64,000 bases of DNA from Chthoniobacterales bacterium (GTDB lineage Bacteria; Verrucomicrobiota; Verrucomicrobiia; Chthoniobacterales; UBA6821): positions 3,869 through 67,868 of the forward strand of contig DATEBV010000367.1 in the NCBI GenBank assembly GCA_035287205.1, given 5' to 3'. Below the pieces are notes generated by a model that saw only the letters and a program-made list of their open reading frames with translations, made no database searches and was not told where the DNA came from. Below are positions 11,966 through 58,670 of the stretch, one piece after another. The translations under genes and the position numbers were made by a program. Position 1 is the stretch's first letter; every line of letters starts with the position of its first letter.

Positions 11966-11987
11966 TTTTCTTTTTTAAAATCTATTT

Positions 11988-29438: not shown

Positions 29439-30131
29439 ATGAATTTGCCTGTAGCCATTCTCGCTGGTGGACTAGCTAAGCGCTTACGACCACTGACGGA
29501 AAATATTCCTAAGCTTTTAGTGGAGGTGGCAGGCGAACCATTTTTTACTCATCAAATCAGGTTACTTAAGAAAGCGGGTCTAACTAAAATTATTCTCTGT
29601 GTTGGGTATCTTGGCGAGATGGTTGTAGAGCACTACGGAGATGGTTCTCGATGGGGTATGGAGATAGACTATTCTTTTGATGGGCCGAAATTATTAGGAA
29701 CAGGGGGAGCACTTATTCAAGCGCTTCCCAAACTAGGAGATGCTTTTTATGTGCTCTATGGTGATAGCTATTTGCCAATTGATTATCAATCGGTAGGAGA
29801 TAGCTTTTTGAAATCAGGCAAAAAAGGACTGATGACTGTTTATAAAAACAAGGACCTTTATGACTCAAGTAATGTCTGGTATGATCAGGAGTGTATCATG
29901 GCTTATGATAAGCAAAGAAAGCTTCCACAGATGCATTATATTGACTATGGGTTAGGAGTCTTTCAATCTGTGGCTTTTGCTAACTATTCTTCTAGCGATA
30001 TAATTGATTTAGCCGAGATACAGAAAGATCTTGTAGTACAGGGAGAATTAGCTGGGTATGAAATAAAAGAGCGTTTTTATGAAGTTGGTTCTCATACAGG
30101 ACTCAAAGAATTGAACAATCTCCTGGCGTAA
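29439..30131 (+). CDS. hddC: Sugar-1-phosphate nucleotidyltransferase, D-glycero-alpha-D-manno-heptose 1-phosphate guanylyltransferase-like
   Basis: 'AILAGGLAKRLRPLTENIPKLLVEV' is the NTP-transferase G-x-G-x-R-L motif. 230 aa, with pathway context. Confidence 0.7.
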   Translation: MNLPVAILAGGLAKRLRPLTENIPKLLVEVAGEPFFTHQIRLLKKAGLTKIILCVGYLGEMVVEHYGDGSRWGMEIDYSFDGPKLLGTGGALIQALPKLGDAFYVLYGDSYLPIDYQSVGDSFLKSGKKGLMTVYKNKDLYDSSNVWYDQECIMAYDKQRKLPQMHYIDYGLGVFQSVAFANYSSSDIIDLAEIQKDLVVQGELAGYEIKERFYEVGSHTGLKELNNLLA

Positions 30132-30140
30132 GCGTTCCAA

Positions 30141-30401
30141 GGAATAGCCACAAAAGAACACAAAGAAACACAAAAAAGAAATTTGGCGATGAATTTGATT
30201 GATTAGTTAGCCTAAGCTGTTTCGTAGCTGTGGGTGCTCTATGTTCTCGCAGGATCTCAATTCACTACTCTCTTATTTTTCACGATAGCGAACATTTTTT
30301 ATATTGAGTTCTTAAATTCATTAAAGAATTTTTATAAAAATTCTTTTTTTGTGTTCTTGTTCTTTGTGTTTTTTTGTGTCCTTTTGTGGCTATTTTCTTC
30401 C
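30141..30401. repeat. RE-5 full-length copy (hddC-gmhA spacer)
   Basis: GGAATAGCCACAAAAGAACACAAAGAAACACAAAAAAG ... internal palindrome AAGAATTTTTATAAAAATTCTT ... CCTTTTGTGGCTATTTTCTTCC. Confidence 0.85.
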
Positions 30402-30482
30402 TTGTTTCTGTTACTTCAATTCAGTTTAAGCTCACTAAAAATCCATTTTCAAAATCAGTTTACCTCCAGGCAGAATCTACTT

Positions 30483-31082: not shown

Positions 31083-31128
31083 GCTATAGGCTACAGGCCC
31101 AAATGGCTGTTCAGTAGCTTCTTAAAAA

Positions 31129-31210
31129 CTATGCAATGTATTTACACGACACCTTCGCAGCACAATCATTTGGTTCCGATTTTTCCTCCGAAGGAGGGAA
31201 ATCTGAACGC
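31129..31210 (+). repeat. RE-2 copy supplying the gmhB start
   Basis: ctATGcaatgtatttacacgacaccttcgcagcacaatcatttggttccgatttttcctccGAAggagggaaatCTGaacgcc. Confidence 0.85.
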
Positions 31211-32207: not shown

Positions 32208-32281
32208 CCTTTCTTGTCACGAAGTGACCAAAAATCAACTTAAACTTAAACTTTCAACTTAAACTTACTGCAAAGCAGTAA
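32208..32281 (+). mobile_element. RE-1L fragment with a substituted terminal hairpin
   Basis: cttgtcacgaagtgaccaaaaatcaacttaaacttaaac, then TTACTGC-AAA-GCAGTAA in place of the CGG hairpin. Confidence 0.6.
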
Positions 32282-32285
32282 AAAA

Positions 32286-32366
32286 CTATACAATGCATTC
32301 ACACTATACTTCTGTAGCACAATCATTTGGTTCAGGACCGTCCTCCGAAGGAGGGGGGCTGAACGC
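32286..32366 (+). repeat. RE-2 copy supplying the transaldolase start
   Basis: ctatacaATGcattcacactatacttctgtagcacaatcatttggttcaggaccgtcctccGAAggaggggggCTGaacgc. Confidence 0.85.
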
Positions 32367-35318: not shown

Positions 35319-35390
35319 GCCGACGTAGCACAGTGGTAGTGCAGCTGATTCGTAATCAGCAGGTCAGGGGTTCGAATCCCCTCGTCGGCT
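35319..35390 (+). tRNA. tRNA-Thr (anticodon CGT)
   Basis: Manual cloverleaf: acceptor GCCGACG/CGTCGGC, D arm GCAC-AGTGGTA-GTGC, anticodon arm GCTGA-TTCGTAA-TCAGC, T arm AGGGG-TTCGAAT-CCCCT. No encoded CCA. Confidence 0.9.
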
Positions 35391-35430
35391 CATTTTTAAA
35401 AATTAAATTATTCGGGTTAGTTGTGTTAGC

Positions 35431-35568
35431 GTAAATATGCGGTTAACCCATTTGTAGAATGTGCTCCAATTTATCATCGGAACGATCCTTCAAATTTTAA
35501 CCAGCATACCGATTAACCTTCAGCCTTCAACTTTTAGCCTCTATTCGGCCTGTTGGCCGAATAGTTAC
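35431..35568 (+). mobile_element. RE-1S copy, 40 nt downstream of tRNA-Thr
   Basis: GTAAATATGCGG...CTATTCGGCCTGTTGGCCGAATAGTTAC. The flanking 8-mers gtgttagc and gtggtagt match at 6 of 8 positions. Confidence 0.85.
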
Positions 35569-36837: not shown

Positions 36838-36883
36838 CTATCTTTAATTCGGTTGCAGCGAAGTGGCAACTGAATGACAATTT
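36838..36883 (+). promoter_or_regulatory. Conserved hairpin module upstream of TA cassette 1 (related to the RE-7 terminus)
   Basis: ctatctttaattcGGTTGCagcgaagtgGCAACtgaatgacaattt. The same module precedes all three antitoxin ATGs. Confidence 0.5.
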
Positions 36884-37060
36884 ATGATAATAGACCATCC
36901 CATTCCAACGTTAGTAGAAGAACCTGTAGAAACAAGTGACTCAATCTATACAGTTGAGTTGATAGCCGCTCTTGAGGAAGCAGATGCTGCAATTGATCGA
37001 GGAGAATTTGTGACTTTTGAGGAAATTAAGAAGGAATTTGCTTCATGGGTTACGAAATAG
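36884..37060 (+). CDS. Small antitoxin of ParE/RelE cassette 1 (58 aa; below the ORF-track cutoff)
   Basis: Manual translation: [58 protein letters not shown]. Paralog of 38739-38921 and 40034-40216. Overlaps the toxin start by 16 nt. Confidence 0.55.
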   Translation: MIIDHPIPTLVEEPVETSDSIYTVELIAALEEADAAIDRGEFVTFEEIKKEFASWVTK

Positions 37061-37347: not shown

Positions 37348-38293
37348 TCCTTCCTCGCGTATTTACATTGCAGGCCATCGCGGAATGGTTGGTTCTGCAC
37401 TCGTGCGTGCGTTTCATGCAAGAGGTTGTACCAATCTCATTCTGAAGACGCATCAGGAGTTAGATCTTTGTGATCAAGCTGCTGTTCAATCATTTTTTGA
37501 AAAGGAAAAACCGGAAGTTGTTGTGGTAGCTGCTGCACGTGTGGGAGGTATTCATGCTAATGCAACCTACCCTGCAGAGTTTATTCATGAGAATCTTGCG
37601 AGTGCTCATCATGTGATTCATGAGGCTTATACGCATGGAGTAGAACGTCTGCTTTTTCTTGGAAGCTCGTGCATCTATCCTAGGGAAGCACCTCAGCCGA
37701 TTAAAGAGGAGTATCTCCTTTCAGGCCCTCTGGAGCCAACGAATGAGGCTTATGCCATTGCAAAGATTGCGGGACTTAAGCTCTGTCAATTTTATCGTCA
37801 GCAGTATGGAGTTTTATTTCATTCTGCGATGCCGACAAATCTTTATGGTCCTGGTGATAATTATCATCCTGAAAATTCTCATGTGTTGCCGGCACTTATA
37901 CGTCGTTTTCATGAGGCTAAAGAAATAGCGGCTTCTTCAGTGAGCCTCTGGGGCACAGGGACAAGTCGACGTGAATTTCTTCATGTTGATGATCTTGCGT
38001 CAGCATTGCTTTTATTGCTTGAACAGGAGAATCCACTCGATTGGATCAATGTAGGCAGTGGTACCGATGTGACGATTCGTGAGTTGGCCGAACTCATCGC
38101 TCGTATCATCGGTTTTGAAGGAACACTGCAGTGGGATGCTACGCGTCCTGATGGAACTCCGCGCAAACTGATGGATAGTAATAAACTTTTTGGAATGGGC
38201 TGGCGTTCGCAGTTTGATCTCGAAATGGGAATACGTCATGCCTATGACGATTTTTTGCGATCTTTAGAAAGTGGAATTTTAAGGAAGAATTAA
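37334..38293 (+). CDS. fcl: GDP-L-fucose synthase (GDP-4-keto-6-deoxymannose epimerase/reductase)
   Basis: '[14 protein letters not shown]' and '[10 protein letters not shown]' are canonical Fcl. ATG 37334 lies inside the last 14 nt of the toxin gene. The last codons and stop fall in RE-5-like sequence (38283-38350). Confidence 0.9.
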
Positions 38294-38350
38294 CCACAAA
38301 AAGCAGAGAAGAAATTAACCACAAAGAACACAAAGGAACACAAAAGAAGA
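38283..38350. repeat. RE-5-like solo left end (duplicated) covering the fcl stop
   Basis: ggaagaatTAAccacaaaaagcagagaagaaattaaccacaaagaacacaaaggaacacaaaagaag. Confidence 0.7.
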
Positions 38351-38477
38351 AGTAAAAAGTGAAAGGGTATTTTTAGAATTTTGGTCCGAGGTTGGGTTGA
38401 TTTTTTATGTGCGGTGTTATTTTATTTGAACATAATCGATGATCTAATTGTCTTATTTCAGGAAGACAATGGTAGAA

Positions 38478-38676
38478 GTAAATATTCGATTAACCCAGTC
38501 GATAAAATTTGTCTAGCCGTGTAAGAATCCTTTACTGAAGTGATTTCGAGAGCAAAAAACTAGGTGCAAATAAAAATGTCGCTTCACTTTTTACATTGTT
38601 ACGAAGTGACCAAAAATCAACTTAAACTTAAACTGAAAACTTAAACTTATATTCGGCCTGTTGGCCGAATATTTAC
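38478..38676 (+). mobile_element. RE-1L full-length copy with a perfect 8-bp TSD
   Basis: 199 nt. TIR GTAAATATTCG / CGAATATTTAC. TSD TGGTAGAA at 38470-38477 and 38677-38684. The paralogous site near 39971-39990 is empty. Confidence 0.92.
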
Positions 38677-38689
38677 TGGTAGAATAAAA

Positions 38690-38738
38690 AACCTGATTTT
38701 ATTTAAGTTGCTGCGTAGTGGCAACTGAACGCCTATTT
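38690..38738 (+). promoter_or_regulatory. Conserved hairpin module upstream of TA cassette 2
   Basis: acctgattttatttaAGTTGCtgcgtagtgGCAACTgaacgcctattt. Confidence 0.5.
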
Positions 38739-38921
38739 ATGATTACTGACCCATTAGTAGAAGAATTAGTAGAAGACCCTACAGAACTAAGCAGACGCGA
38801 TCCTGCTTATCGAGCTGCATTTATTGCAGCAGTTGAAGAAGGGTTAGCATCAATCGAACAAGGGAAATGTATCACTCTTGAAGAAATGGAGAAAAAATTC
38901 TATTCATGGTTTACCGAGTAG
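38739..38921 (+). CDS. Small antitoxin of ParE/RelE cassette 2
   Basis: MITDPLVEELVEDPTELSRRDPAYRAAFIAAVEEGLASIEQGKCITLEEMEKKFYSWFTE. C-terminal 'A.EEGL....G..I..EE' is ParD-like. Overlaps the toxin start. Confidence 0.55.
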   Translation: MITDPLVEELVEDPTELSRRDPAYRAAFIAAVEEGLASIEQGKCITLEEMEKKFYSWFTE

Positions 38922-39208
38922 TTATTTCTCCTGAAGCTCAGCGTGATCTAAGAGGTATTCAGCGCTATATTTCTTTTGATGCGCCTCAGGCAGCTCTACG
39001 CTTTACTCAACACCTTTTTTCTAAGCAAAAAGTTCTTGAAGCACATCCTGAAATAGGTCGTGTTGTCCCTGAAATTGCCAATTGCACCCTACGAGAGATC
39101 ATTATTGGAAACTATCGAGTGATTTATAAGGTCGATCATTCGGGAAAAGAAATTATAATTCTTCGATATTGGCATGCTGCTCGAGGTGTTCCAGAATTTC
39201 GTTATTAA
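38906..39208 (+). CDS. ParE/RelE-family toxin (cassette 2, intact)
   Basis: 100 aa, alignable over its full length with 37045-37347, roughly half the positions identical by eye. Confidence 0.7.
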   Translation: MVYRVVISPEAQRDLRGIQRYISFDAPQAALRFTQHLFSKQKVLEAHPEIGRVVPEIANCTLREIIIGNYRVIYKVDHSGKEIIILRYWHAARGVPEFRY

Positions 39209-39813: not shown

Positions 39814-39984
39814 TGTAGTTGTCTAGCCAGCGAGAAGAGCAGGAATTAACTGCAAAATAACACAAAGGATTTTTTTTGAAATCTTGATCCAAGATTGGGT
39901 TTGATCTTGTTACACAGTGGACTATTTTATTTTGAACGTAATTGATGATCCAATTGTCTTACTTAAAGAAAGACTATGATAAAA

Positions 39985-40033
39985 AATCTTATTTTATTTC
40001 AGTTGCCGCCTGACGACAACTGAACACCTATTT
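39985..40033 (+). promoter_or_regulatory. Conserved hairpin module upstream of TA cassette 3
   Basis: aatcttattttatttcAGTTGccgcctgacgaCAACTgaacacctattt. Confidence 0.5.
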
Positions 40034-40216
40034 ATGATAACTGACCACTCCATCTCAACGTTAGTAGAAGATCCTGCAGAACTAAGCAGACGTGATCCGG
40101 CTTGTCGGGCTGCATTTATTGCGGCGGTTGAAGAAGGGCTGGCTGATTTTGAACGAGGAGATTTTATCACTCATGAAGAACTTAAAAAAGAATTCTATTC
40201 ATGGTGTACCGAATAG
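40034..40216 (+). CDS. Small antitoxin of ParE/RelE cassette 3
   Basis: MITDHSISTLVEDPAELSRRDPACRAAFIAAVEEGLADFERGDFITHEELKKEFYSWCTE. Close paralog of the cassette-2 antitoxin, with most positions identical by eye. Confidence 0.5.
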   Translation: MITDHSISTLVEDPAELSRRDPACRAAFIAAVEEGLADFERGDFITHEELKKEFYSWCTE

Positions 40217-41150: not shown

Positions 41151-41457
41151 GTAAATATTTGACAGCCCTAATCAGAAAATTTTGTTGAAGTTCTTTATTA
41201 AAGTGACCTTGAAAGCAAAAAGTTGGGAGGAAGGAAAAATATCGCTTTGCTTCTCTCCTTGTCACGAAGGTAAATATTCGGTTAACCCATCAGTAAAATG
41301 TGCTAGAGAATCAATTAATTATCAGAGCGATCTATCAAATCTTAATCAGCGTATCGATTAGCCTACAGCCTATAGCCTACAGCCTATAGCCTCTATTCGG
41401 CCAGCAGGCCGAATAGTTACTCACGAAGTGACCAAAAATCAACTTAAACTTAAACTC
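41151..41457 (+). mobile_element. RE-1L copy interrupted by RE-1S (composite)
   Basis: Starts gtaaatatttgac. It is interrupted at 41269/41421 and resumes tgaccaaaaatcaacttaaacttaaac. It lacks its own terminal hairpin. Confidence 0.75.
41270..41420 (+). mobile_element. RE-1S copy nested inside an RE-1L copy, with a perfect 8-bp TSD
   Basis: 151 nt. Flanked by TCACGAAG (41262-41269) and TCACGAAG (41421-41428). It splits the RE-1L motif gtcacgaagtgacc. Confidence 0.9.
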
Positions 41458-41470
41458 TTACCTATTTCTT

Positions 41471-42916
41471 ATGTTCTCAAACATCCTCTCTATCATTGGC
41501 ATCTCTCTCGAGGTGATTATCCTTTTTAATCTTTTAATTGTTGTTCATGAGTTAGGGCATTTTCTGGCAGCCCGTTCTCGTGGGCTTGTGGTGGAAAAAT
41601 TCGCTATTTGGTTTGGAAAGCCCATTTGGTCGAAGACCATTAATGGAATTGAATATCGGTTAGGATGTATTCCTGCTGGAGGGTTTGTCGCCATCCCTCA
41701 GTTAGCGCCGATGGAAGCACTCGAGGGAGAGAGTAAGCAAAAGTATTCCGATCTGCCGCCTGTTTCCCCACTTGATAAAATTATTGTTGCCGCAGCAGGA
41801 CCGGTTTTTAGTCTTTTGCTGGCTTTAGCATTTGCTTGTGTTGTTTGGGGTGTTGGGCGTCCTGTAAGTGAGGCAGAGAAGACCGCTGTGATAGGTTATG
41901 TTATGCCTGATGGTCCTGCTGCTAAGGCAGGCTTACAGCCAGGAGATAAAATTCTTGCGGTGAATGCACATCCTGTCACACGTATTAATGGGATGGGACG
42001 GATGAGTGATAGCGTGTCTTGGAATGTGGCTACAAGCCAATCACCTTTGATTCCGATTCGCTTTGAGCGCGATGGGGTGGAGCACATTGTTGAAATTGAG
42101 CCCCTTGTGCAGCCTCGCCAAGGATGGGGTAGAAAGAATCTTCGTCAGATTCAGATCTTGCCGGCGCAGACGCCAATGATTTCTAAAATTATCCCTCAAA
42201 GTCCTGCCTCGGCAGCAGGACTTCTTTCTGGCGATCTGGTGGTGATGGCCAATGGAGTAAAATTATTGAGTCCTATTGCCTTGGCAGAAATTCTTAATAA
42301 TACCAAGGGACAGGCGGTAACGTTGGTGATCAGTCGTCGTATGGGAGATGCTTTAAAAACTTTTTCAGTGAATATTTTACCTCTCATTCCTGTAGGGGAG
42401 AAGCAGTCGCGTCTTGGTATTGTCTGGGATCAACGTGGTGTTGTGACGCTCTCTTATCCTAATCCTTGGGATCAAATTGCGGCAAGTGTGAGTACGATGT
42501 GGGAGACCATCTCGGCAGTGATGACACCTCATTCGGAAATTACGGTGCAGCACCTGAGCGGTCCTGTTGGTATTATGAGGATTTATTATATGCTTTTTGA
42601 AAGTCCCATGGGATGGCGTTTAGCTCTTTGGTTCAGTGTGGTGCTTAATGTCAACTTGGCTCTACTGAATCTGCTCCCTTTCCCTGTACTTGATGGGGGG
42701 CACATTCTTCTGGCAATTTGTGAATGGGCAATTCGTAAGCCGATCGAACATCGCGTGGTAGAATGGATTCAGAGTGGCTTTGCTCTTATTCTGATGGGAT
42801 TCATGTTGTATGTAACTTTTTTTGATCTTCTCGATTTGCCGCCCCTTATGAGAGGAAAATCGAATCCCCAAGAAAAATCAGCAGTGATGCAGTTTGCCTC
42901 GCCAGTTGGAAAATGA
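41471..42916 (+). CDS. rseP: RIP (site-2) zinc metalloprotease RseP
   Basis: 'HELGHFLAAR' (HExxH), PDZ-like central regions, and 'NLLPFPVLDGGH' (NxxPxxxLDG). Confidence 0.9.
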   Translation: MFSNILSIIGISLEVIILFNLLIVVHELGHFLAARSRGLVVEKFAIWFGKPIWSKTINGIEYRLGCIPAGGFVAIPQLAPMEALEGESKQKYSDLPPVSPLDKIIVAAAGPVFSLLLALAFACVVWGVGRPVSEAEKTAVIGYVMPDGPAAKAGLQPGDKILAVNAHPVTRINGMGRMSDSVSWNVATSQSPLIPIRFERDGVEHIVEIEPLVQPRQGWGRKNLRQIQILPAQTPMISKIIPQSPASAAGLLSGDLVVMANGVKLLSPIALAEILNNTKGQAVTLVISRRMGDALKTFSVNILPLIPVGEKQSRLGIVWDQRGVVTLSYPNPWDQIAASVSTMWETISAVMTPHSEITVQHLSGPVGIMRIYYMLFESPMGWRLALWFSVVLNVNLALLNLLPFPVLDGGHILLAICEWAIRKPIEHRVVEWIQSGFALILMGFMLYVTFFDLLDLPPLMRGKSNPQEKSAVMQFASPVGK

Positions 42917-44742
42917 CTTACTGTCGCAGCCTTTATCATTATGAGCGGCGCCTTTCTCGCGTTGTAACTGTTGGTGATCTCAAGATGGGTGGAGATGAAC
43001 CAATACGGGTTCAATCGATGTTGACTTCTGACACGATGGATACAGAAGCGTGTGTTCGTGAGACTTTAGGTTTAGTTGCTGTGGGGTGTGAAATAGTTCG
43101 TATCACAGCACCTACAGTGAAGGATGCAGCTAACTTAAAAAATATTCATGAGGCCTTGCGTGCCGTAGGCTGTGAGGTACCGCTGGTGGCTGATATTCAT
43201 TTTAAGCCTGATGCAGCTTTGGAAGCGGCTCAATGGGTGGAGAAGGTTCGCATTAATCCTGGTAATTTTGCGGACTCCAAGAAGTTTCATGTTCGTGAGT
43301 ATAGCGATATTGAATATGAAACGGAGCTGGAAAGGATTCGAGATCGATTCGCTCCGTTAGTACACCTTTGCAAGGAGCGAGGTGTGGCGATGAGAATTGG
43401 AACGAATCACGGTTCGCTTAGTGACCGTATCATGAATCGTTTTGGAGATTCACCGCGAGGAATGGTAGAAAGTGCTTTAGAGTTTGCTCATATTGCTCGG
43501 GATCTTGATTATCATGAATTTGTTTTTTCCATGAAGGCTTCTAATCCGAAGGTAATGATTGAGGCTTATCGATTGTTGATAGCTCGTCTTGAAGCAGAAG
43601 GATCTGATTGGAATTATCCCATTCATCTTGGCGTGACCGAGGCTGGGGATGGAGAAGATGGACGTATTAAAAGTGCTATTGGTATTGGTTCACTTCTTGC
43701 CGATGGTATTGGCGATACGGTTCGGGTTTCACTCACGGAAGATAGCGAGAGAGAGATTCCCGTAGCGCAGGCACTAGTTAGAAGATGGCAGGGAGAAAAT
43801 GGAAGTCAGGATGCAGATTACAGGGAGCAGGTTGCAGGGAATTCATCTCGTGCCGCCGCCGCATGTCCTACCTGGCCTCTTTTTAGTTATGAACGGCGTA
43901 CTTCTGAATCTCTTTGTTTACAAGGAGTGAACCTAGGTGGAGAAGAGCCAATCCGTGTTGTTGTGTTACGTGAGACATATCAAGCAGTTGCTCCTAAATT
44001 GGCATCCATGGGAGAGTATCAACCAGAGCTTATTGAAGAGGATCTTCCCATTAAAGAAATTGATCCTTCTTCTGATGCTGAGGTAGCCGCCATGAATGCC
44101 GAAGAAAGCCCTACTCTTGTTACAGTAAGGGATGGTACGGCAATGTCGCCGATTGCAGCCTTTCGCATGTTAGCAGCACGTCTTGCAGCAAGGCATCCTA
44201 TTTTACTCAAAGATACATTAGACTTCTTTCGAAACCCTACTGGTGCCGCGAATTGTGACGTCGCGTCGGTGTTGGAGCAGAATTCTACTAATAATCTGCT
44301 TGCTTCAGCGACTACTATTGGTTCGTTGCTTTGTGATGGTATTGGAGATGCCATTATGATTCGTAGAGAGAAGGCGCCAGGCGCTTCGTTGCGTCTTGCT
44401 TATAATATTCTTCAAGCGGCAGGCACACGGATTTTTAAAACCGATTATGTAGCATGTCCTTCGTGTGGGAGAACGCTTTTTAATCTTCAGAACACAACCG
44501 CTCGTATTAAGGCTGCTACAGGACATCTCAAAGGAGTTCGTCTTGCAGTAATGGGGTGTATTGTTAATGGTCCCGGAGAAATGGCCGATGCCGATTTCGG
44601 TTATGTCGGAGGGGCCCCAGGTAAAATCAATCTCTATGTCGGAAAGAAGCCTATAAAATTTAATATTCCGGAAGCAGAGGCTGTAGAACAACTTGTTCAA
44701 CTCATCCGTGAGCATGGTAAATGGGTTGACGCAGTAGTTTGA
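42913..44742 (+). CDS. ispG: 4-hydroxy-3-methylbut-2-en-1-yl diphosphate synthase, long form with inserted domain
   Basis: 'IRVQSM', 'VADIHF', 'RINPGN' and the Fe-S cysteines 'ACPSCGRT' and 'GCIVNGPGE'. 609 aa. A half RE-3 copy lies in frame at 44226-44280 within the insert domain. Confidence 0.9.
   Translation: MTYCRSLYHYERRLSRVVTVGDLKMGGDEPIRVQSMLTSDTMDTEACVRETLGLVAVGCEIVRITAPTVKDAANLKNIHEALRAVGCEVPLVADIHFKPDAALEAAQWVEKVRINPGNFADSKKFHVREYSDIEYETELERIRDRFAPLVHLCKERGVAMRIGTNHGSLSDRIMNRFGDSPRGMVESALEFAHIARDLDYHEFVFSMKASNPKVMIEAYRLLIARLEAEGSDWNYPIHLGVTEAGDGEDGRIKSAIGIGSLLADGIGDTVRVSLTEDSEREIPVAQALVRRWQGENGSQDADYREQVAGNSSRAAAACPTWPLFSYERRTSESLCLQGVNLGGEEPIRVVVLRETYQAVAPKLASMGEYQPELIEEDLPIKEIDPSSDAEVAAMNAEESPTLVTVRDGTAMSPIAAFRMLAARLAARHPILLKDTLDFFRNPTGAANCDVASVLEQNSTNNLLASATTIGSLLCDGIGDAIMIRREKAPGASLRLAYNILQAAGTRIFKTDYVACPSCGRTLFNLQNTTARIKAATGHLKGVRLAVMGCIVNGPGEMADADFGYVGGAPGKINLYVGKKPIKFNIPEAEAVEQLVQLIREHGKWVDAVV
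44226..44280 (-). repeat. RE-3 half copy, in frame in ispG
   Basis: ctttcgaaaccctactggtgccgcgaattgtgacgtcgcgtcggtgttggagcag aligns with the left half of 52456-52587. Encodes FRNPTGAANCDVASVLEQ. Confidence 0.65.
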
Positions 44743-44747
44743 AAACA

Positions 44748-44800
44748 GGAATAGCCACAAAAGAACACAAAGAAACACAAAAAAACAGAACACAAAAAAG
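44748..44800. repeat. RE-5 solo left end, 5 nt after the ispG stop
   Basis: ggaatagccacaaaagaacacaaagaaacacaaaaaaacagaacacaaaaaag. Confidence 0.75.
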
Positions 44801-44802
44801 GA

Positions 44803-44880
44803 GTAAAAATCCGGCTAATCCAGTTAATAAAATTTGTCTAAATATACTGGAATCTTTTGCTGCAGCGACTGAGAAGGCAT
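44803..44880 (+). mobile_element. RE-1L, 5' part only
   Basis: gtaaaaatccggctaatccagttaataaaatttgtctaaa aligns with the 5' part of 38478-38676. Confidence 0.55.
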
Positions 44881-45848: not shown

Positions 45849-45868
45849 GACTCGCTCTCGGACAAACT

Positions 45869-45953
45869 CTATATATGTCATCCATTCACACTACACCTTC
45901 GCAGTCCGACCATTTAGTTCAGATCCTTCCTCCGCAGGAGGGAGGATCTGGAG
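45869..45953 (+). repeat. RE-2 copy supplying the start of APC permease 1
   Basis: ctatatATGtcatccattcacactacaccttcgcagtccgaccatttagttcagatccttcctccgcaggagggaggatctgga. Confidence 0.85.
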
Positions 45954-49053: not shown

Positions 49054-49321
49054 GAAATTCACCACACCAGTCATTCAGTCCTCGCTACGCAACGACTGAA
49101 GTAAAGGTGACAGTTTGTTTTAGTATGTTTACTTAACTGATAGTTGAACAATTAGTAGTAAGGAGGGTGAAGAATTTTTATAGCGTTCTCAGTAACTTAA
49201 TTGAACTTAATTGAAAGCTATTTTTTGATTTTTTTTCAGGAAAGACAACGATAAAAACAAAAACCTTATTTTACTTCAGTCGCTGCGCAGCAGAGACTGA
49301 ATGACTGGTGTGGTGAATTTC
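49054..49321. repeat. RE-7: 268-nt element with inverted termini of about 55 nt
   Basis: GAAATTCACCACACCAGTCATTCAGTCCTCGCTACGCAACGACTGAAGTAAAGG ... CCTTATTTTACTTCAGTCGCTGCGCAGCAGAGACTGAATGACTGGTGTGGTGAATTTC. Confidence 0.85.
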
Positions 49322-49432
49322 TGCGTATTTGAGGAACGTTATCAGTCACAAAACTAGCACTAATTATCGGGTAGATATTGCTATGGTTTTTACCACCCCT
49401 CCCTTTACCTTTCACTCTTTACTTCTTCTTTC

Positions 49433-50667: not shown

Positions 50668-50740
<73 letters not shown>

Positions 50741-50744
50741 CACT

Positions 50745-50890
50745 CTACATATTAGGCCAACAGGCCGAATATAAGTTTAAGTTAAAAGTTTAAGTTTAAG
50801 TTGATTTTTGGTCACTTCGTGACAAGGTAAGAAGCGAAGCGACATTTTTATTTTCTCGAGTTTTTTTGCTCTCGAAGTCGCTTCATAGCC
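50745..50890 (-). mobile_element. RE-1L copy (reverse orientation), 4 nt after tRNA-Phe
   Basis: ctacatattaggccaacaggccgaatataagtttaagtt...ggtcacttcgtgacaagg is the reverse complement of the RE-1L 3' half. Confidence 0.75.
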
Positions 50891-51093: not shown

Positions 51094-51199
51094 GCGTTCA
51101 GATCTGAGGTGCAGACAATCTTTATAAATTGAAGGCTTGGTATAGTGCCAGAATGATTCCATCCCAATGTTATTTTTAGCTGTAAACACAAATAAAAAG

Positions 51200-51257
51200 C
51201 CTTATTTTACTTCAGTCGCTGCGCAGCAGGGACTGAATGCCTAATGTGGTGAATTTC
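51200..51257 (+). repeat. RE-7 solo right end, just upstream of the AddB-like gene
   Basis: ccttattttacttcagtcgctgcgcagcagggactgaatgcctaatgtggtgaatttc. Confidence 0.8.
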
Positions 51258-51280
51258 TTTTTGCTTGATGCTTGCTAGCA

Positions 51281-54200
51281 ATGGACCCTTCAGATTTTAT
51301 TTTTTTAGATTGGAATCGTCCATGGCTTCCTCAACTTGCACAGTACCTGCTGACAACATGGTCCTGTAATCAACAATCCTCAGCACTTGATTCTGCAAGC
51401 GCATATACTGACCTCTCTGACACTGTTGTAATTTTGCCTGGGAGTAGGGCAGGGCGGCGACTTTTAGAGCTTCTTGCGCTTCAAGCTACAGAAGCGGCGC
51501 AAATTTTAATTCCTCCTCGTATTGTTACTTTGAGGAAGGCCGTTTCTTTGTTTTTAGAATTGAGTGAAGAATGCTTTCCTGAGGCAGGGCTCTTTACAAG
51601 TCGATTAGCTTGGCGTGAAGCTATGGCACAACTTCCCGCAAGTGAGCATTCTTTCATTCATGCTGCTCCTATAGAATCAACACAGAATCAACCGCTCTAT
51701 CGTATTGCTGAAGAACTAGCCCAAAAATTGGGTGGTGTAGGGCTTGATTTCAACGATGTTGCGAGACGTCTTGGCAGTCTCTGTCCCGAGGTCGCTGACT
51801 TTGAAGAGCCCCGTTGGAACGCTCTAGCTCATTTACAACAACTCTATCGTCAACAACTGACCCAATGGGGATATAGCGATGCTACCGACGCTCTTCGAAA
51901 ACGGCTTGCAGAAGGGGTTGCGAAGAAAGATGGCCGGATACTCGCCTGTTTTGTTGCCGACTATTCTCCTCTTTTTATTCCTTTTTTTGAAAAGGTACAA
52001 CCAGCCATCGCTGTTGTGGCTCCTTCTTCGCATGCAGCAGGATTTGGAGCCTATGGAAAATTAATCACTTCTTACTGGTTAGAGCATCCTGTTTCTTTGG
52101 ACTCAGCAACTATTATTCCTTGTGAAAGGAGTGAGGATCAGGCAGAAGAGATCGCTCATCTTGTTTCTTCCTTAGAGGTTTTTCTTCCTTCTTCTTTTTC
52201 GCTATCCGATAGTATTTCAATAGCGACCCCTGATGTTTCAGCTGTTCCAATGATTCGTGAACAGCTGGCTTTAGCTGACATCAAAGCTCGTTGGGCAGGA
52301 GGAAAGTCTTTTAAAGGAAGTCGTCTTCATCAACTCTTGCATGCGGTTGCCACAATGATGGATTCCTTTCCCAAGCTCTCTCTCGAAGCCTTTCGTTTGC
52401 TCTTGCGTCATCCGGATATCAATGTGCATCTCTCAGATCAAGAAAAAGTAGACTTCTTTCGAAACTCTACTTCTGCTGTGAATTGCGGCGTCGCGCCGGT
52501 GCTCGAAGTATCGAGTAGCTCCTGTACACTCAACTTCTCCGCGCCGTCGACTCCTTGCACTTCATCAGCAGAAGCGAGTTTGGGAAGAAGTCTATTGATT
52601 CGTCAGCTCGACCAATGGGAACAAGATCATCTGTCGCAGTTTTTAGAAAAAGATCATCTGCGTCAGTTTCCCAAATTTTTTTCACTTCTTTCTGCTATTA
52701 CAAAAATTGAAGAGATCATAGGCTTTTCGCCAAGATCTCAACGACTTGATTATTTAGTGAATGAATTAAGATTGTTTTTTCTACGAACTATGGGCGATCG
52801 TGAGGTCCGTGTTACGGTTCCTGAAGAACATTATCTTGTAGGGTGCCTTGAAAAGTTGAACATACTTCTTGAAGAAATTTCTTGTTCTTCATCAGCCTCA
52901 GCGACCATGAATATAGGTTCTGAGACAGGTTCTAAAAGAAAATCTGATAGTGGTCCCTTTTCGCTTCGAATGGCTGATTTTATAAGGCTTCTTATTGAAA
53001 TCATGAGTTCAGAAGAGCTTCCGGAGCGTGAAGAGCCCGAAGCTATTGAACTTTTGGGATGGCTTGAGGTCGCTTCTGATGATGCGCCAGTAATTATTAT
53101 TTCCTCTTGTCATGAGGGAGCGCTTCCTTCCTCTCAACGAGGAGATCCTTGGCTGCCTGAAGGGATTAGAGGTGCCTTGGGACTTCCTGATAACAAGCGA
53201 TTACTTGCACGTGATCATTATCTCCTTCACACCATCATGGCTGCTCGCACAGAAGCAGGCGTTGTTAAGATCTTTGCGCCACGTCATAATGGTCGTGGAG
53301 AACCAGTACGCCCAAGTCGTCTTTTAATGCTTGGTTGTTCTGAAGAAGAATTACCTGAAAGAGTTCTTTCACTAACGCAACGATTACAAGGAGGTTCTTA
53401 TCGATCACAATCTCAACAGGATTTTAGTAAGAACCTATCTTCACAGTCTACTGAAGCTGCGATGGGCTTCGTCACTCCGGTGCTCGAGTCCTCAGGTATG
53501 CCCTATACATTCCGGGCTCTGCGCTCCGAGGTTCCTTGCCCTTCATCAGCCTCAGCGACTTTGAAAACAGGTTCTAAGCAAGAATCAAGCTTTCGAGCTC
53601 TTCCTATAACAGAAGCAACCATCGAACGTCTGAATGTTACCTCTTTACGCACCTACTTGCGATCGCCAAGACTTTTTTATCTGCAGCATATTTTAAAGCT
53701 TCAAGAAATTGAATTGAATGCTGTTGAAATGGATGCATCACAATTTGGAACCCTGATTCATGCGGTGCTTGGAGCTTTTGGAGCTGAGGAGAAGATAACT
53801 AGTGTCCTCGATGCTAAAGAAACCTCTTCGTGGTTTAGAAAAAAACTTTTTGAAATTGCTCAGTATCAATTCGGCAACGAGCCACGACAATCTATCGTAT
53901 CACAAATTGAAGAAGTGATGCCTACTTTAGATGGTTTTGCCAAAGCGCAACAACTTCATCGTAGTAAAGGATGGAAAATCATTCATGCTGAAGCTATAGA
54001 CCAGGGGGGAGGCTCTCGCTTAGAAAAAATGATATCTCTTCCGAAAGGTCAATCCGTTATTTTACAGGGAAGGATAGATCGAGTTGATTGGCATCCAGAA
54101 ACAAGACGATGGTTAATTATTGATTATAAAACTTCTAACCGACAAGATTGGGAAAGGCAGACTCCTGATAGAGAGCATTTTCAAGAACAAGGAGGAGTGA

Positions 54201-54505
54201 TGCTATGGCATGACCTTCAACTTCCATTGTACTTAAAACTTGTTGATCAAATTCCAGCAGTGATGGGTTCAGGATTACCTACTCCAACTTTGGACAATAC
54301 AGACCTCTGCTACTTTCAGCTTCCTATCCACCCTGAAAGAGCAGGGTTAAGTTCTTATTTTAGCAACAGCATGATTACAGCAGCGTGGGAAGAGGCCTTC
54401 CGTGTGATAGAAGAAATTCTTGCTGGTAACTTCGAAGAAATCGGTGATCTTAATTCTGATCAAATGCCTACCTTAGCCGCTCTTTGTGGGATTTCTGGGT
54501 TGTAG
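51281..54505 (+). CDS. PD-(D/E)XK nuclease family protein, AddB/RexB-like
   Basis: C-terminal 'GRIDRVDWHPETRRWLIIDYKTS' followed by 'QLPLY' fits the RecB-family nuclease motif of AddB-type proteins. About 1,075 aa, with no Walker A seen. Carries RE-3 insertions at 52456-52587, 52887-52933 and 53430-53575. No addA partner in the window. Confidence 0.55.
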   Translation: MDPSDFIFLDWNRPWLPQLAQYLLTTWSCNQQSSALDSASAYTDLSDTVVILPGSRAGRRLLELLALQATEAAQILIPPRIVTLRKAVSLFLELSEECFPEAGLFTSRLAWREAMAQLPASEHSFIHAAPIESTQNQPLYRIAEELAQKLGGVGLDFNDVARRLGSLCPEVADFEEPRWNALAHLQQLYRQQLTQWGYSDATDALRKRLAEGVAKKDGRILACFVADYSPLFIPFFEKVQPAIAVVAPSSHAAGFGAYGKLITSYWLEHPVSLDSATIIPCERSEDQAEEIAHLVSSLEVFLPSSFSLSDSISIATPDVSAVPMIREQLALADIKARWAGGKSFKGSRLHQLLHAVATMMDSFPKLSLEAFRLLLRHPDINVHLSDQEKVDFFRNSTSAVNCGVAPVLEVSSSSCTLNFSAPSTPCTSSAEASLGRSLLIRQLDQWEQDHLSQFLEKDHLRQFPKFFSLLSAITKIEEIIGFSPRSQRLDYLVNELRLFFLRTMGDREVRVTVPEEHYLVGCLEKLNILLEEISCSSSASATMNIGSETGSKRKSDSGPFSLRMADFIRLLIEIMSSEELPEREEPEAIELLGWLEVASDDAPVIIISSCHEGALPSSQRGDPWLPEGIRGALGLPDNKRLLARDHYLLHTIMAARTEAGVVKIFAPRHNGRGEPVRPSRLLMLGCSEEELPERVLSLTQRLQGGSYRSQSQQDFSKNLSSQSTEAAMGFVTPVLESSGMPYTFRALRSEVPCPSSASATLKTGSKQESSFRALPITEATIERLNVTSLRTYLRSPRLFYLQHILKLQEIELNAVEMDASQFGTLIHAVLGAFGAEEKITSVLDAKETSSWFRKKLFEIAQYQFGNEPRQSIVSQIEEVMPTLDGFAKAQQLHRSKGWKIIHAEAIDQGGGSRLEKMISLPKGQSVILQGRIDRVDWHPETRRWLIIDYKTSNRQDWERQTPDREHFQEQGGVMLWHDLQLPLYLKLVDQIPAVMGSGLPTPTLDNTDLCYFQLPIHPERAGLSSYFSNSMITAAWEEAFRVIEEILAGNFEEIGDLNSDQMPTLAALCGISGL
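52456..52587 (-). repeat. RE-3 copy (reverse orientation), in frame (44 codons) in the AddB-like gene
   Basis: Close reverse complement of 7316-7447, roughly 85-90% identical by eye. Encodes FRNSTSAVNCGVAPVLEVSSSSCTLNFSAPSTPCTSSAEASLG. Confidence 0.85.
52887..52933 (-). repeat. RE-3 end fragment, in frame in the AddB-like gene
   Basis: cttcatcagcctcagcgaccatgaatataggttctgagacaggttct aligns with the right end of 53430-53575. Confidence 0.55.
53430..53575 (-). repeat. RE-3 long variant (reverse orientation), in frame in the AddB-like gene
   Basis: Termini agaacctatcttcacagtc / gactttgaaaacaggttct. Reverse complement of copy 56102-56247. Encodes ...STEAAMGFVTPVLESSGMPYTFRALRSEVPCPSSASATLKTGS. 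Confidence 0.8.
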
Positions 54506-54515
54506 GCAAGAAGAA

Positions 54516-54750
54516 GGAAGAAAATAGCCACAAAAGAACACAAAGAAACACAAAAAGAAACTTGGCGATGAACTAGATTAATTAGCTAGCCTAAGCTGTT
54601 TTGCTGCTATTAACGCTCTATATTGAAGCAGGATTTCAATTCCTGGCCTCATTGATTTTCATAATATTGAACATTCTTTATCTTTAATTTTTATAAAAAT
54701 TCTTTTTTTTATTTTTGCTTCTTTGTGTTCTTTTGTGGCTATTTTCTTCC
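54516..54750. repeat. RE-5 full-length copy (AddB-like to GH spacer)
   Basis: GGAAGAAAATAGCCACAAAAGAACACAAAGAAACACAAAAAG ... TTCTTTTGTGGCTATTTTCTTCC. Confidence 0.85.
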
Positions 54751-57266
54751 GGCAATTACTTCATTTCAGTTTGAATTTATATCAACGCTCATTACTCGTC
54801 TGGCCATTCCTTGTGGTTGTTTTCTGCTATTTGCTAATTCCCTCACAAGTACTAGCTCTCAACGGTAGTAAATATTCGGTAAACTCATCTGTAGAATGTG
54901 CTCCAACGAATCAGCAGAGTTCTTCTAATTGTGCCTGCAGCAACAGCTCTCCACTTCCATCTCCTGTCGCAGCGACGACATCTCCCACCTCTCACCTACC
55001 ACCTACCACCTCTATTAGGCCTGTTGGTCGAATAGTGACAGGCATTGTCACTATTGATCTCGATCATCCGAAGGCAATTTTGGATGCTTCTCAAACTCTT
55101 GGTGCAGGAATTGATGGGCATAAAGAGGGAGAGGGGGAAACAATTTTTTCATTAGCCAATATTCGCCGTATGCGTTCAGCTGGTTTAAAACCACTTGCTT
55201 ACCGCCTTCGGACTGAATTAGGGGTGGAAGCATGGCATTGGAATCCTCAAGGAACTTGGAGTGATCCTTCTCACCAGCAAGGGTATTGGCTCTCATCGAT
55301 TCATTCTAAAAAACCACTTCTTGAAAGTTATGGTTATCGACTACCTCGTCGCGGAGATACTCTTGACGAAGCTAATAACGATGGCTATTCACGACTTGAT
55401 GATGGTAACTCTAAGACTTTTTGGAAAAGCAATCCTTACCTTACTTCTCATTATACAGGAGAACCTGATAGGAAACATCCCCAGTGGGTGGTGCTCGATT
55501 TTGGAAAGCCTGTTTTTATTAATGCGGTCCGTCTTCATTGGAGAGAACCCTACGCAAAAAAATTTCGTATTCAATTTGCCAATGAAGGAGCTGTTTACTT
55601 TGGGCATCATCGTCCTTGGCATGATTTTCCTCAGGGAAAAAGAGAGCAAGGTCATGGAGGAGAAGAATTGCTTTCTTTAGGAGAGGTCAAGAAATTCGGG
55701 AAAAGAATACCTATTCGTTTTCTTCGCGTTCTGATGACAGAGAGTTCAGCAACAGCTCCTCCTTCGTGTCACGACCCACGCGACATGATGGGATATGCTA
55801 TCCAAGAAATTGAAGCAGGAGAAATAACTCGCGACGGAGTTTTTCATGATCATGTCATTCATCGTCCTGATAACCAGCAGACGCTCGTTTATGTTTCATC
55901 AACGGATCCATGGCATCGTGCCTCAGATAGGGATGAAAAAACCGAGCAACCAGGTTTTGATTTAATTGTTTCTTCTCGTCTTGCAGAAAAAAATGCCATC
56001 CTTTGGTCACTTCCAGTATTGTATGATACTCCGGAAAATAGTGCTGCTGCAGTACGATTCTTGCAACAACGCGGATATCTCTCTCAAGGAGTGTCAAAAT
56101 TAGAACCTGTTTTAAAAGTCGCTGAGGCTGATGAAGGGCGAGGAGTCGGCGGCGCGCAGAAGTTGAGTGTACAGCAGCTACTCGATGCTTCGAGCACCGG
56201 CGCGACGAAGCCATTCGCAGCTGCAGTAGACTTTGAAAACAGGTTCTTAGAACTTGGTGAAGAACCCGATGGGCAGCGCATAGATCCTAATGACTTTGGA
56301 GCTCTCTACTGTCAAACAGCACGACTTATTCGTAAGATAGATCCTTCAATTTCTTTAGGAGGTCCTAGTTTTGTCACCATTGATTGCCAACCAAACGATA
56401 CCACCTACCGCTTTGATCATCGTTCTTGGCTTCAGCGATTTTTCAAACAACTTCGAAAAAAAAATCAAAAGAAAGACTTTCAGTTTCTTACTTTTGAGTG
56501 GTATCCCTTCGACGATATTTGCCTTGATCCAGCGTCCTTACTTACTCAAGAACCGCTCCAACTTCAGCAAGCCGTTAAGCGAATTCGTCGTGGAGGAGTT
56601 CCTCCCTCCATGCCACTCATGATTACCGAGTATGGGTATTCTGTCTTTGAAGGACAACCTGAGGTGGAGCTTGCAGCAGCACTACTCAATACGGATATTA
56701 GTGCTCAATTTCTCTTATTAGGAGGAAAGACTTCTTATCTTTATGGGTATGAACCAAATTCTTTAGCCTGCCTTTATGGGAATTCTTGGGGAAACCTGAT
56801 GATGTTTCTTCAGAATAAAAGAGGAGGAATCAAAGCCTCTCTTCCTACTTATTATGCTGCACGTCTCTTAACTCAAGAGTGGATGGCTCCTTTAGCAGGA
56901 ACTCATCAAATCTATCCAACAGTAACAAATCTCAAAGACAAGAAGGGAAGATCTTTGGTAACAGCCTATACCCTTCAGCGTCCAGATCATCAGTGGTCAC
57001 TTCTAATCGTCAATAAAAGCCCTGATCAAGCTTGTTGTATTCAATGTCATTTTCTACATGCTGATCGAAAAGTTCCTAGTCCATGGAAAAGTCCTAGGGA
57101 TCTTTATTCCTATTCTCCAGTTCAATACCAATGGCATGTTGATGGACCGCATGGGCATCCTTCTCGCAATCGAGAGCCAGCTCACTCTTCGCTCAAAGAA
57201 GAAGATCCAATAATAATACTTCCATGGTCTATTACGGTCATTCTATTCGGGCAACAGGCCGAATAG
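54723..57266 (+). CDS. Secreted discoidin (F5/8 type C)-domain protein with C-terminal TIM-barrel glycoside-hydrolase-like region
   Basis: 'FWKSNPY...PQWVVLDFGKPVFINAVRLHW' is discoidin-like. 'LELGEEPDG', 'FEWYPF' and 'MITEYGYS' resemble GH clan-A acid/base and nucleophile strands. TTG start lies inside RE-5 copy 54516-54750. In-frame RE-1V (54868-55039) and RE-3 (56102-56247). The TAG stop lies inside an RE-1L terminal hairpin. Confidence 0.55.
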   Translation: MCSFVAIFFRQLLHFSLNLYQRSLLVWPFLVVVFCYLLIPSQVLALNGSKYSVNSSVECAPTNQQSSSNCACSNSSPLPSPVAATTSPTSHLPPTTSIRPVGRIVTGIVTIDLDHPKAILDASQTLGAGIDGHKEGEGETIFSLANIRRMRSAGLKPLAYRLRTELGVEAWHWNPQGTWSDPSHQQGYWLSSIHSKKPLLESYGYRLPRRGDTLDEANNDGYSRLDDGNSKTFWKSNPYLTSHYTGEPDRKHPQWVVLDFGKPVFINAVRLHWREPYAKKFRIQFANEGAVYFGHHRPWHDFPQGKREQGHGGEELLSLGEVKKFGKRIPIRFLRVLMTESSATAPPSCHDPRDMMGYAIQEIEAGEITRDGVFHDHVIHRPDNQQTLVYVSSTDPWHRASDRDEKTEQPGFDLIVSSRLAEKNAILWSLPVLYDTPENSAAAVRFLQQRGYLSQGVSKLEPVLKVAEADEGRGVGGAQKLSVQQLLDASSTGATKPFAAAVDFENRFLELGEEPDGQRIDPNDFGALYCQTARLIRKIDPSISLGGPSFVTIDCQPNDTTYRFDHRSWLQRFFKQLRKKNQKKDFQFLTFEWYPFDDICLDPASLLTQEPLQLQQAVKRIRRGGVPPSMPLMITEYGYSVFEGQPEVELAAALLNTDISAQFLLLGGKTSYLYGYEPNSLACLYGNSWGNLMMFLQNKRGGIKASLPTYYAARLLTQEWMAPLAGTHQIYPTVTNLKDKKGRSLVTAYTLQRPDHQWSLLIVNKSPDQACCIQCHFLHADRKVPSPWKSPRDLYSYSPVQYQWHVDGPHGHPSRNREPAHSSLKEEDPIIILPWSITVILFGQQAE
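54868..55039 (+). mobile_element. RE-1V (172-nt variant), in frame inside the discoidin/GH gene
   Basis: GTAAATATTCGG...CTATTAGGCCTGTTGGTCGAATAGTGAC. Encodes KYSVNSSVECAPTNQQSSSNCACSNSSPLPSPVAATTSPTSHLPPTTSIRPVGRIV. Confidence 0.85.
56102..56247 (+). repeat. RE-3 long variant, in frame in the discoidin/GH gene
   Basis: Termini AGAACCTGTTTTAAAAGTC / GACTTTGAAAACAGGTTCT. Encodes EPVLKVAEADEGRGVGGAQKLSVQQLLDASSTGATKPFAAAVDFENRF. Confidence 0.85.
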
Positions 57267-57413
57267 AAGTTTAAGTTTTAAGTTTAAGTTTAAGTTTAAG
57301 TTGGTTTTTAGTCACTTCGTGACAATGAGAAAAGTGAAGCGATATTTTTATTTGCACCTAGTTTTTGCTCTCGAAATCGCTTCAGTAAAGGATTCTTTCA
57401 CGTCTAGACAAAT
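57240..57413 (-). mobile_element. RE-1L copy (reverse orientation) supplying the TAG stop of the GH gene
   Basis: ctattcgggcaacaggccgaaTAGaagtttaagtt...agtcacttcgtgacaatg...gtctagacaaat. The stop codon 57264-57266 lies inside the hairpin. Confidence 0.8.
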
Positions 57414-58634: not shown

Positions 58635-58646
58635 TTAAGTTTGTAA

Positions 58647-58670
58647 CTATTCGGCCTGTTGGCCGAATAG
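58647..58670. repeat. Solo RE-1 terminal hairpin abutting the stop of the FGE-like gene
   Basis: CTATTCGGCC-TGTT-GGCCGAATAG. The next base begins the reverse-strand stop codon (58671-58673). Confidence 0.8.

Follow-up and report, generated by a model that had tools for sequence, protein, structure and literature searches.

How did a 199-nt non-coding sequence come to occupy the spacer that separates a parDE-like toxin-antitoxin (TA) pair from an epimerase gene in the genome of a Chthoniobacterales bacterium, and is it one of many copies that moved by transposition, as a preliminary description of the locus had proposed? We analyzed the 64,000-nt stretch of contig DATEBV010000367.1 that carries this sequence (hereafter the window, to which coordinates refer throughout; positions in related contigs are given with the name of the locus). 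We consider it very probable that the sequence is a MITE (miniature inverted-repeat transposable element) that generates an 8-bp target-site duplication (TSD), that it belongs to a family of at least two subfamilies mobilized in trans by a DDE transposase, most likely of the IS66 family, and that it was inserted at this site after the TA pair had been duplicated.

Direct reading of positions 38200-38950 delimits an element of 199 nt (38478-38676) of the subfamily that we call L. It is bounded by perfect terminal inverted repeats (TIRs) of 11 bp, which can be extended to a version matching at 14 of 17 positions, and is flanked on both sides by the 8-mer TGGTAGAA, so that the boundaries, the TIRs and the duplicated flank are all as previously described. 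The TIR 11-mer occurs 16 times in the window when at most one mismatch is allowed, versus 1.29 occurrences expected, and none of 100 shuffles reached this number. The right end contains a sub-terminal hairpin, the most conserved module of the family, whose outer arm comprises most of the right TIR, the latter running 4 nt past the stem, to position 38676. Its identity to the L consensus amounts to 92.5%, which together with the perfect TIRs and the perfect TSD suggests that it was inserted fairly recently. It is intergenic: the epimerase gene ends 184 nt upstream, and the antitoxin-like open reading frame (ORF) starts 62 nt downstream. No effect of the copy on parDE expression is readable from the sequence.

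The flanks of a larger set of copies carry the evidence for transposition. By scanning metagenomes with the hairpin sequence we obtained 68 related loci (~600 kb, ~41% G+C, mostly from dataset Ga0155638, none overlapping the window), and the window and these contigs together provided 60 non-redundant complete copies, 52 of them from the related contigs. Perfect 8-bp direct repeats, representing 16 distinct sequences, flank 16 of the 60 copies, while near-perfect flanks matching at seven and six of eight positions were found for four and seven copies, respectively. Hence 27 of the 60 copies have flanks that match at six or more positions, versus ~0.6 expected from shuffled pairing, and perfect matches are obtained in the 8-bp register only. 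For the seven complete copies in the window, the flanking 8-mers match at 8, 8, 6, 6, 3, 2 and 1 of eight positions. Since other L copies are flanked by different 8-mers (TTTCTATC, CATATGAC, AACTAGAG and CGAGTATC), TGGTAGAA lies outside the element consensus. Two doubts raised in the preliminary description, namely that copies elsewhere might lack flanking direct repeats and that TGGTAGAA might be part of the element itself, are dispelled by this tabulation. On the hairpin side, the position directly 3' of the duplication is occupied by T in 16 of 20 well-preserved insertions, versus 38% in the background, which we interpret as a mild, asymmetric target preference.

Independent comparisons of filled sites with empty sites, reconstructed by removing the element and one copy of the TSD, could be made for at least eight insertions, several of which occurred within other repeat families. 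One of them, the decisive second case of a perfect duplication in the window, is a 151-nt copy of the other subfamily, S, nested in an older L copy that is missing its right-end hairpin. The nested copy is bracketed by a clean TCACGAAG duplication, and its target TTGTCACGAAGTGACC is uninterrupted in dozens of intact long copies.

For the 199-nt copy, the comparison is provided by the region itself, which contains three tandem paralogous units (repeat families D12, D17 and D18), each consisting of a small antitoxin-like ORF and a ParE toxin gene recognized by Pfam. The second unit can be aligned to the third on the left and on the right of the element, and the sister unit ~1.3 kb downstream is free of it. 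The reconstructed empty site is 77% identical to positions 39864-40129 across the junction. The sister site reads ...AAGACTATGATAAAAAATC... and contains a single counterpart of the target, TGATAAAA, which matches the duplicated 8-mer at six of eight positions and is followed by an A-rich 5-nt indel; differences of this kind are to be expected between paralogs with 77% identity. The preliminary description had presented the same flanks as contiguous in the sister unit. The absence of the element and the alignability of both sides hold, and the exact continuity does not, so that the site is a diverged paralogous empty site and no exact pre-insertion sequence. Its emptiness is best explained if the insertion came after the duplication of the TA pair. 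As a separate observation, a conserved hairpin motif, TTTATTTCAGTTGC-N-GCAACTGAA, is located just upstream of start codons at 36843-36936, 38698-38791, 39993-40086, 49254-49322 and 51190-51258; it precedes all three TA units and also unrelated genes, and the insertion point of the MITE coincides with the 5' edge of this motif.

The same data bear on the possibility that the two copies of TGGTAGAA arose by coincidence, slippage or local duplication, the block having been spread with the tandem TA duplication without any transposition. The tandem arrangement of three ParE units and the seven occurrences of TGGTAGAA in the window (1.7 expected) would be in line with such an origin. However, the element is present in one of the three units only, the chance of a perfect 8/8 match exactly at the TIR boundaries is ~3e-5, and the same architecture recurs 15 more times with different 8-mers. 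This scenario is refuted by the alignment of the units, the flank statistics and the empty sites, and we consider its probability to be vanishingly small.

Analysis of the 60 complete copies allowed us to define the structure of the family that moves with this duplication. Its members are 105-317 nt long, with modes at 151 and 199 nt, share the TIR consensus GTAA-N-TATTCGG at both ends, and are represented in the window by ~17 copies or fragments. The preliminary description had treated them as one repeat family flooding the window; transposition of the family is borne out, and the family is actually composed of two subfamilies, S (39 complete copies, modal length 151 nt) and L (21 complete copies, ~199 nt), which have the first ~30 nt and the last ~30 nt in common. 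Both follow the same layout, which leads from the left end GTAAATATTCGGTTAACCCA... through a core that is specific to each subfamily and a stretch of tandem repeats of 6-7 nt (CCTACAG-like in S and ACTTAA-like in L) to the terminal hairpin CTATTCGGCC-TGTT-GGCCGAATAGTTAC. All six frames are interrupted by stops in the L copies, except for two of the 21, and no ORF in these copies encodes a transposase. A search with the S consensus against a plasmid collection and a search with the hairpin against viral contigs gave no match, and a genome-collection scan with the degenerate palindromic pattern TATTCGGCCNNNNGGCCGAATA gave, among the matches listed, chance ones in unrelated high-GC genomes.

The family thus has the hallmarks of a MITE: a size below ~400 bp with no transposase ORF, TIRs, a TSD of fixed length and variable sequence, and dispersed copies with empty sites. 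It resembles the bacterial MITEs (Correia, ERIC/IRU, RUP, Nezha, Chunjie and the Coxiella QMITEs, reviewed in PMC10969869 and PMC5896051) in being small, multi-copy and devoid of a transposase, in its TIRs and TSDs, in its mostly intergenic location, and in the occurrence of nested copies and deletion derivatives. It differs from them in i) an 8-bp TSD instead of the common TA dinucleotide, ii) a modular body in which the conserved hairpin at the end adjoins a variable stretch of 6-7-nt tandem repeats, and iii) its host, an uncultured Chthoniobacterales bacterium of the phylum Verrucomicrobiota. The placement of the host in this phylum agrees with a protein of 100% identity that is assigned to a Chthoniobacterales bacterium.

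The strong conservation of the G+C-rich hairpin (TATTCGGCC-N4-GGCCGAATA, repeat family D4) invites comparison with another class of dispersed repeats, the repetitive extragenic palindromes (REPs) and their paired form (REPINs), in which the 24-32-nt hairpin would be the REP unit, spread by a RAYT, a REP-associated transposase of the Y1 HUH type whose substrates are single-stranded hairpins. Such a short conserved hairpin dispersed across the genome, its occurrence as solo 32-nt units at 4323-4354 and 58643-58674, and the presence of three Y1_Tnp genes among the related contigs are features expected of these systems. Y1/HUH enzymes make no TSDs, and therefore cannot account for the family; REPINs and IS200/IS605 elements likewise produce no target duplication, whereas here 16 perfect TSDs bracket the whole 130-200-nt unit, and no TSD signal is seen around the 32-nt hairpin alone. 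In addition, what flanks the Y1 genes is not the family hairpin but their own, unrelated inverted repeats of 38-42 bp beginning with GGGGTCAGTCC. We have therefore rejected the REPIN scenario, which is very improbable given these TSDs and the unrelated flanks of the Y1 genes. The Y1_Tnp (IS200-like) gene itself encodes 317 aa and is found in three copies (L069 534-1656, L042 1800-2951 and L056 4194-5306), each bounded by its own inverted repeats, and constitutes a separate mobile unit.

The presence of TA cassettes between structured repeats led us to consider an integron attC array, the criterion being R''/R' cores (RYYYAAC...GTTRRRY) and short promoterless cassettes. This candidate was rejected: the ends read GTAA...TTAC, there are no GTTRRRY cores, and the neighbors are long housekeeping and polysaccharide-synthesis ORFs.

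A functional origin of the abundance was also weighed, in which the element would be a host-selected module such as a regulatory RNA, a terminator or a promoter cassette, maintained by selection and not by selfish spread. The plus strand folds modestly better than shuffled sequences (z = -2.8), the S copies are co-oriented with neighboring genes (32 versus 6), and the 199-nt element is located just upstream of a TA operon. On the other hand, folding of the minus strand is not significant, and the orientation of L copies is unbiased (11 versus 10). An Rfam search of the element retrieved no family, terminator-like sites are absent from it, and promoter-like matches are at the background level. 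The insertion sites are heterogeneous and include other repeats and coding sequence, and the TSDs would be left unexplained. Selection as the general cause of the abundance is thus improbable, although exaptation of single copies is still compatible with the data.

In the transposition scenario, which we favor, the 199-nt sequence is a non-autonomous DNA transposon that encodes nothing. Its ~11-14-bp TIRs (GTAA-N-TATTCGG) would be recognized by a DDE-type transposase whose gene lies elsewhere in the genome and which would cut the target with an 8-bp stagger, and repair of the gaps would give rise to the TGGTAGAA duplication in the spacer between the epimerase gene and the already duplicated parDE-like TA pair. 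The absence of a transposase from the 64 kb, noted in the preliminary description, was borne out by scanning ~50 ORFs against Pfam or NCBIfam and by the precomputed Pfam hits, none of which is a transposase.

The nature of the parent can be approached through the ends and the length of the duplication. IS66-family insertion sequences (IS) have inverted repeats that start with GTAAGCG and generate 8-bp direct repeats (PMC11946415). The ends of the family analyzed here, GTAAATATTCGG and GTAACTATTCGG, also begin with GTAA. Comparison of these short sequences with published IS66 inverted repeats (PMC12888890) gave 11 matches over 15 positions for GTAACCGTCCGGGCA versus GTAACTATTCGGCCA and 14 over 24 for GTAAGCGTCCGGCGAACTCACCTT versus GTAAATATTCGGTTAACCCATCAG, and comparison with the equally short inverted repeat of ISDge4 (GTAACTGCTCAGCA), a member of the single-ORF ISBst12 group of IS66 that also has an 8-bp direct repeat (PMC12898284), gave 10 matches over 14 for GTAACTATTCGGCC. 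Based on the GTAA termini, the 8-bp duplication and the 10-11 matches over 14-15 terminal positions, we infer with moderate confidence that the parent is an IS66-family DDE transposase, possibly of the ISBst12 group, acting in trans. The element differs from IS66 in the absence of tnpA, tnpB and tnpC, in its size of only 130-200 nt, in being AT-rich, and in an extra inverted copy of the end, which creates the sub-terminal hairpin and is confined to one end.

According to the ISfinder family tables, direct repeats of 8 bp are produced by several IS families, and the parent of this MITE may instead belong to another of them, e.g. IS256, ISL3, IS6, IS1595 or ISAs1. Besides this shared length, the failure to recover a cognate transposase in the window or the related contigs and the restriction of the terminal similarity to IS66 to 10-14 bases speak for such a parent. 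Among the 8-bp families, however, GTAA termini are described for IS66 only (PMC11946415), and the pattern GTAAC-..-TC-GC/GG is common to the family analyzed here and the three published IS66/ISBst12 repeats, with 10-11 matches over 14-15 positions. We regard a parent from another family as the less probable choice, with a minor but appreciable chance of being correct.

Certain observations weigh against the proposed scenario as a whole. No recognizable TSD is found for 33 of the 60 copies, which are presumably old insertions. The locus is represented in two other assemblies, MIDR01000113.1 (GCA_001830205.1) and an ENA scaffold of the Rifle aquifer study, which agree with the window in all but 1 nt; they accordingly reveal no orthologous presence/absence polymorphism and give no proof of current activity. 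Neither the window nor the ~600 kb of related contigs yielded an autonomous element with the family ends or a TnpC-type DDE transposase (PF03050) bounded by them, and the only transposase-like genes in the related contigs are the Y1 (IS200-like) genes. The assignment to IS66 draws only on the 8-bp length, the GTAA start and the 10-14 matching terminal bases. Weak TIRs separated by 3.3 kb and a TSD matching at seven of eight positions made L039 2475-5761 a candidate autonomous element, but its products are a GspE-like ATPase and a TPR protein, and it was discarded as a false positive. A generic scan for units of 0.6-4.5 kb bounded by inverted repeats identified only the Y1_Tnp units with unrelated ends. 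The GTAA ends combined with the 8-bp TSD supply a mobilization signature for the dominant repeat family of this uncultured Verrucomicrobium, which points the search toward a transposase of the IS66/ISBst12 type.

The S subfamily shows a further property that was overlooked in the preliminary description, namely in-frame insertion inside coding genes. The modal S insert of 151 + 8 = 159 nt corresponds to 53 codons and has one stop-free sense frame. This frame (phase 1, in which one codon base precedes the element) is free of stops in 24 of the 39 S copies versus one of the 21 L copies; any stop-free antisense frame is limited to a single L copy (0/39 for S, 1/21 for L), and the length plus 8 is divisible by three in 29 S and 10 L copies. 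Eleven of the 39 S copies are located inside long ORFs, versus none of the 21 L copies (Fisher p = 0.0056), every time in the sense orientation and in phase 1, and these encode the peptide x-KYSVNPS.EC....NHQ....PTAYSLQP.ASIRPVGRIVT. Among copies of non-modal length, the frame is preserved in all eight that lie within ORFs versus 5 of 16 elsewhere, which is the pattern that purifying selection leaves when it acts on the host gene. S insertions with the right orientation and phase survive as peptide insertions of 44-67 aa. The 199-nt L copy, in turn, has a stop (GTG TAA) in the phase that the S subfamily keeps open.

The best documented case is the S copy in the conserved membrane-protein gene at 18918-21902. 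The protein gains exactly 53 residues, which none of the ten aligned homologs (37-57% identity) possesses, and the gene is annotated by NCBI as one intact 971-aa coding sequence. In the AlphaFold model the insert (residues 312-366) is predicted as an unstructured, low-confidence loop between two helices; given the gaps in the alignment at this point, such low confidence is in part to be expected. In the related loci the element splits NadD-like and metallo-beta-lactamase Pfam domains and is also found within an amidohydrolase domain. A profile built from three peptides of the window retrieved 53 representative proteins out of 1.84 billion searched, 47 of which are at least 150 aa long and form 23 clusters, one being a lineage-specific family of repeat proteins with 20 members. 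A Pfam scan of the ten best proteins bearing the peptide retrieved no families, and these proteins are lineage-specific. When the 51-aa consensus peptide was used in a word-indexed search of proteins, a single, uninformative candidate was returned. Two observations on the window relate to these peptides. The 50-aa protein P0091 (VJK54_11580), annotated as hypothetical on the contig of the window, matches the MITE-encoded peptide and is probably a gene-calling artifact inside a MITE copy. An ORF of more than 1444 aa at ~59800-64000, which runs off the window end and has 300-nt internal repeats (61588-62997) and a strong purine skew, is a member of the lineage-specific repeat-protein family in which many MITE peptides are also found.

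In-frame MITE insertions are known for the Rickettsia palindromic elements (RPEs), ERIC, the Coxiella QMITEs and Anabaena MITEs (PMC10969869; PMC5896051), and the S subfamily is a new example, introducing no new principle. As far as the work of Ogata et al. (2000) is summarized in PMC10969869, RPEs resemble the S subfamily, and only that subfamily, in being units of ~150 nt placed in-frame in unrelated genes, with a conserved peptide and an intact host ORF. The likeness is one of behavior only, not of sequence. Clear TIRs and TSDs of 8 bp set the S elements apart, and the 199-nt L copy is intergenic and not coding-compatible. To our knowledge, no mobilizing enzyme has been identified for RPEs. 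The S subfamily can thus be viewed as an RPE-like system with a recognizable transposition mechanism, whereas the 199-nt copy itself is a clear but unsurprising MITE case. More broadly, we see an even chance that protein-coding genes throughout the genome of this Chthoniobacterales lineage harbor a load of selfish DNA comparable to that of RPEs, with the difference that at least one family involved, the S subfamily, has unambiguous TIRs and 8-bp TSDs. If this is true, the entry of coding-compatible mobile elements into genes and their persistence there become directly testable. For annotation, caution is required, as many long ORFs of the lineage contain MITE-encoded insertions of 44-67 aa and small hypothetical genes may be MITE artifacts.

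Table 1. Positions in the window of the 199-nt element, its empty counterpart and the other copies of the family
Feature	Positions	Strand	Sequence	Remarks
TSD, left copy	38470-38477	+	TGGTAGAA	Direct reading; same letters as 38677-38684
MITE of 199 nt, L subfamily	38478-38676	+		Non-coding
Left TIR	38478-38488	+	GTAAATATTCG	Direct reading and 11-mer count
Sub-terminal hairpin	38649-38672	+	ATATTCGGCC-TGTT-GGCCGAATAT	Most conserved module of the family
Right TIR	38666-38676	-	CGAATATTTAC (plus-strand letters)	Direct reading and 11-mer count
TSD, right copy	38677-38684	+	TGGTAGAA	Direct reading
Small antitoxin-like ORF and ParE toxin gene	38739-39208	+		Downstream of the element; PF05016 ParE_toxin, E = 1.7e-18
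Target counterpart in unoccupied TA unit	39977-39984	+	TGATAAAA	Single occurrence; 6/8 match to the duplicated 8-mer
Older L copy hosting the nested insertion	41151-41476	+		Right-end hairpin missing
S copy, 151 nt, nested in the older L copy	41270-41420	+		Flanks TCACGAAG at 41262-41269 and 41421-41428
S copy, in-frame	1020-1170	+		ORF 872-2242 (BNR_2 protein), between signal peptide and catalytic domain
S copy, 133 nt	8251-8383	+		No recognizable TSD
S copy, in-frame	19864-20014	+		Conserved membrane-protein gene (ORF 18918-21902); TSD decayed to 6/8
S copy, 138 nt	35431-35568	+		40 nt downstream of tRNA-Thr; TSD 6/8
S copy, 172 nt, in-frame	54868-55039	+		Near the N-terminus of ORF 54723-57266
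L copy, 178 nt	4431-4608	+		Internally deleted variant
L copy, 139 nt	13689-13827	+		Internally deleted
L copy lacking the left end	50746-50885	-		Abuts the tRNA-Phe 3' end
L copy lacking the left end	57244-57413	-		

The genes of the window comprise a co-oriented cluster for cell-envelope polysaccharides (RmlA- and RmlC-like enzymes, glycosyltransferases, an ABC-2 exporter and epimerases), TA modules, two tRNA genes, RseP, IspG and amino-acid permeases. Both tRNA genes, Thr-CGT (35319-35391) and Phe-GAA (50668-50741), are followed by a copy of the MITE family at a distance of 5-40 nt. An abundant intergenic repeat composed of AAAGAATTTTTATAAAAATTCTTT, GTGTTCTTTT decamers and GTGGCTATTT occurs at 8186-8245, 11725-11986, 30131-30407, 44738-44806, 54500-54766 and elsewhere, and in locus L060 it served as a MITE insertion target (TSD AAATTCTT). 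The hairpin TCCTCCGAAGGAGGG terminates a dispersed repeat of 75 nt, which is found at 10594-10668, 31124-31198, 32281-32355 and 45868-45942.

Two additional repeat families lie inside genes of the window. The first, unrelated to the two MITE subfamilies, is a ~169-nt fold-back palindrome at 12981-13149 with TIRs matching at 21 of 22 nt (TTAACCCGACTTTCGCAATTGG). It is placed in-frame in the rmlC-like ORF 12860-13573 (dTDP-4-dehydrorhamnose 3,5-epimerase), whose Pfam domain it splits in two; four more copies are present in the related loci L040, L047, L051 and L058, and no TSD has been identified for it so far. The second is a GC-richer family with a unit of ~64-110 nt, a long form of ~300 nt and ~69 hits in the related loci, which is located at 52507-52576 on the minus strand in the addB-like ORF 51272-54505, at 56127-56189 on the plus strand in ORF 54723-57266, and at L050 8761-9080. 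The presence of these two further intragenic families suggests that repeat insertion into genes is a general phenomenon in this genome.

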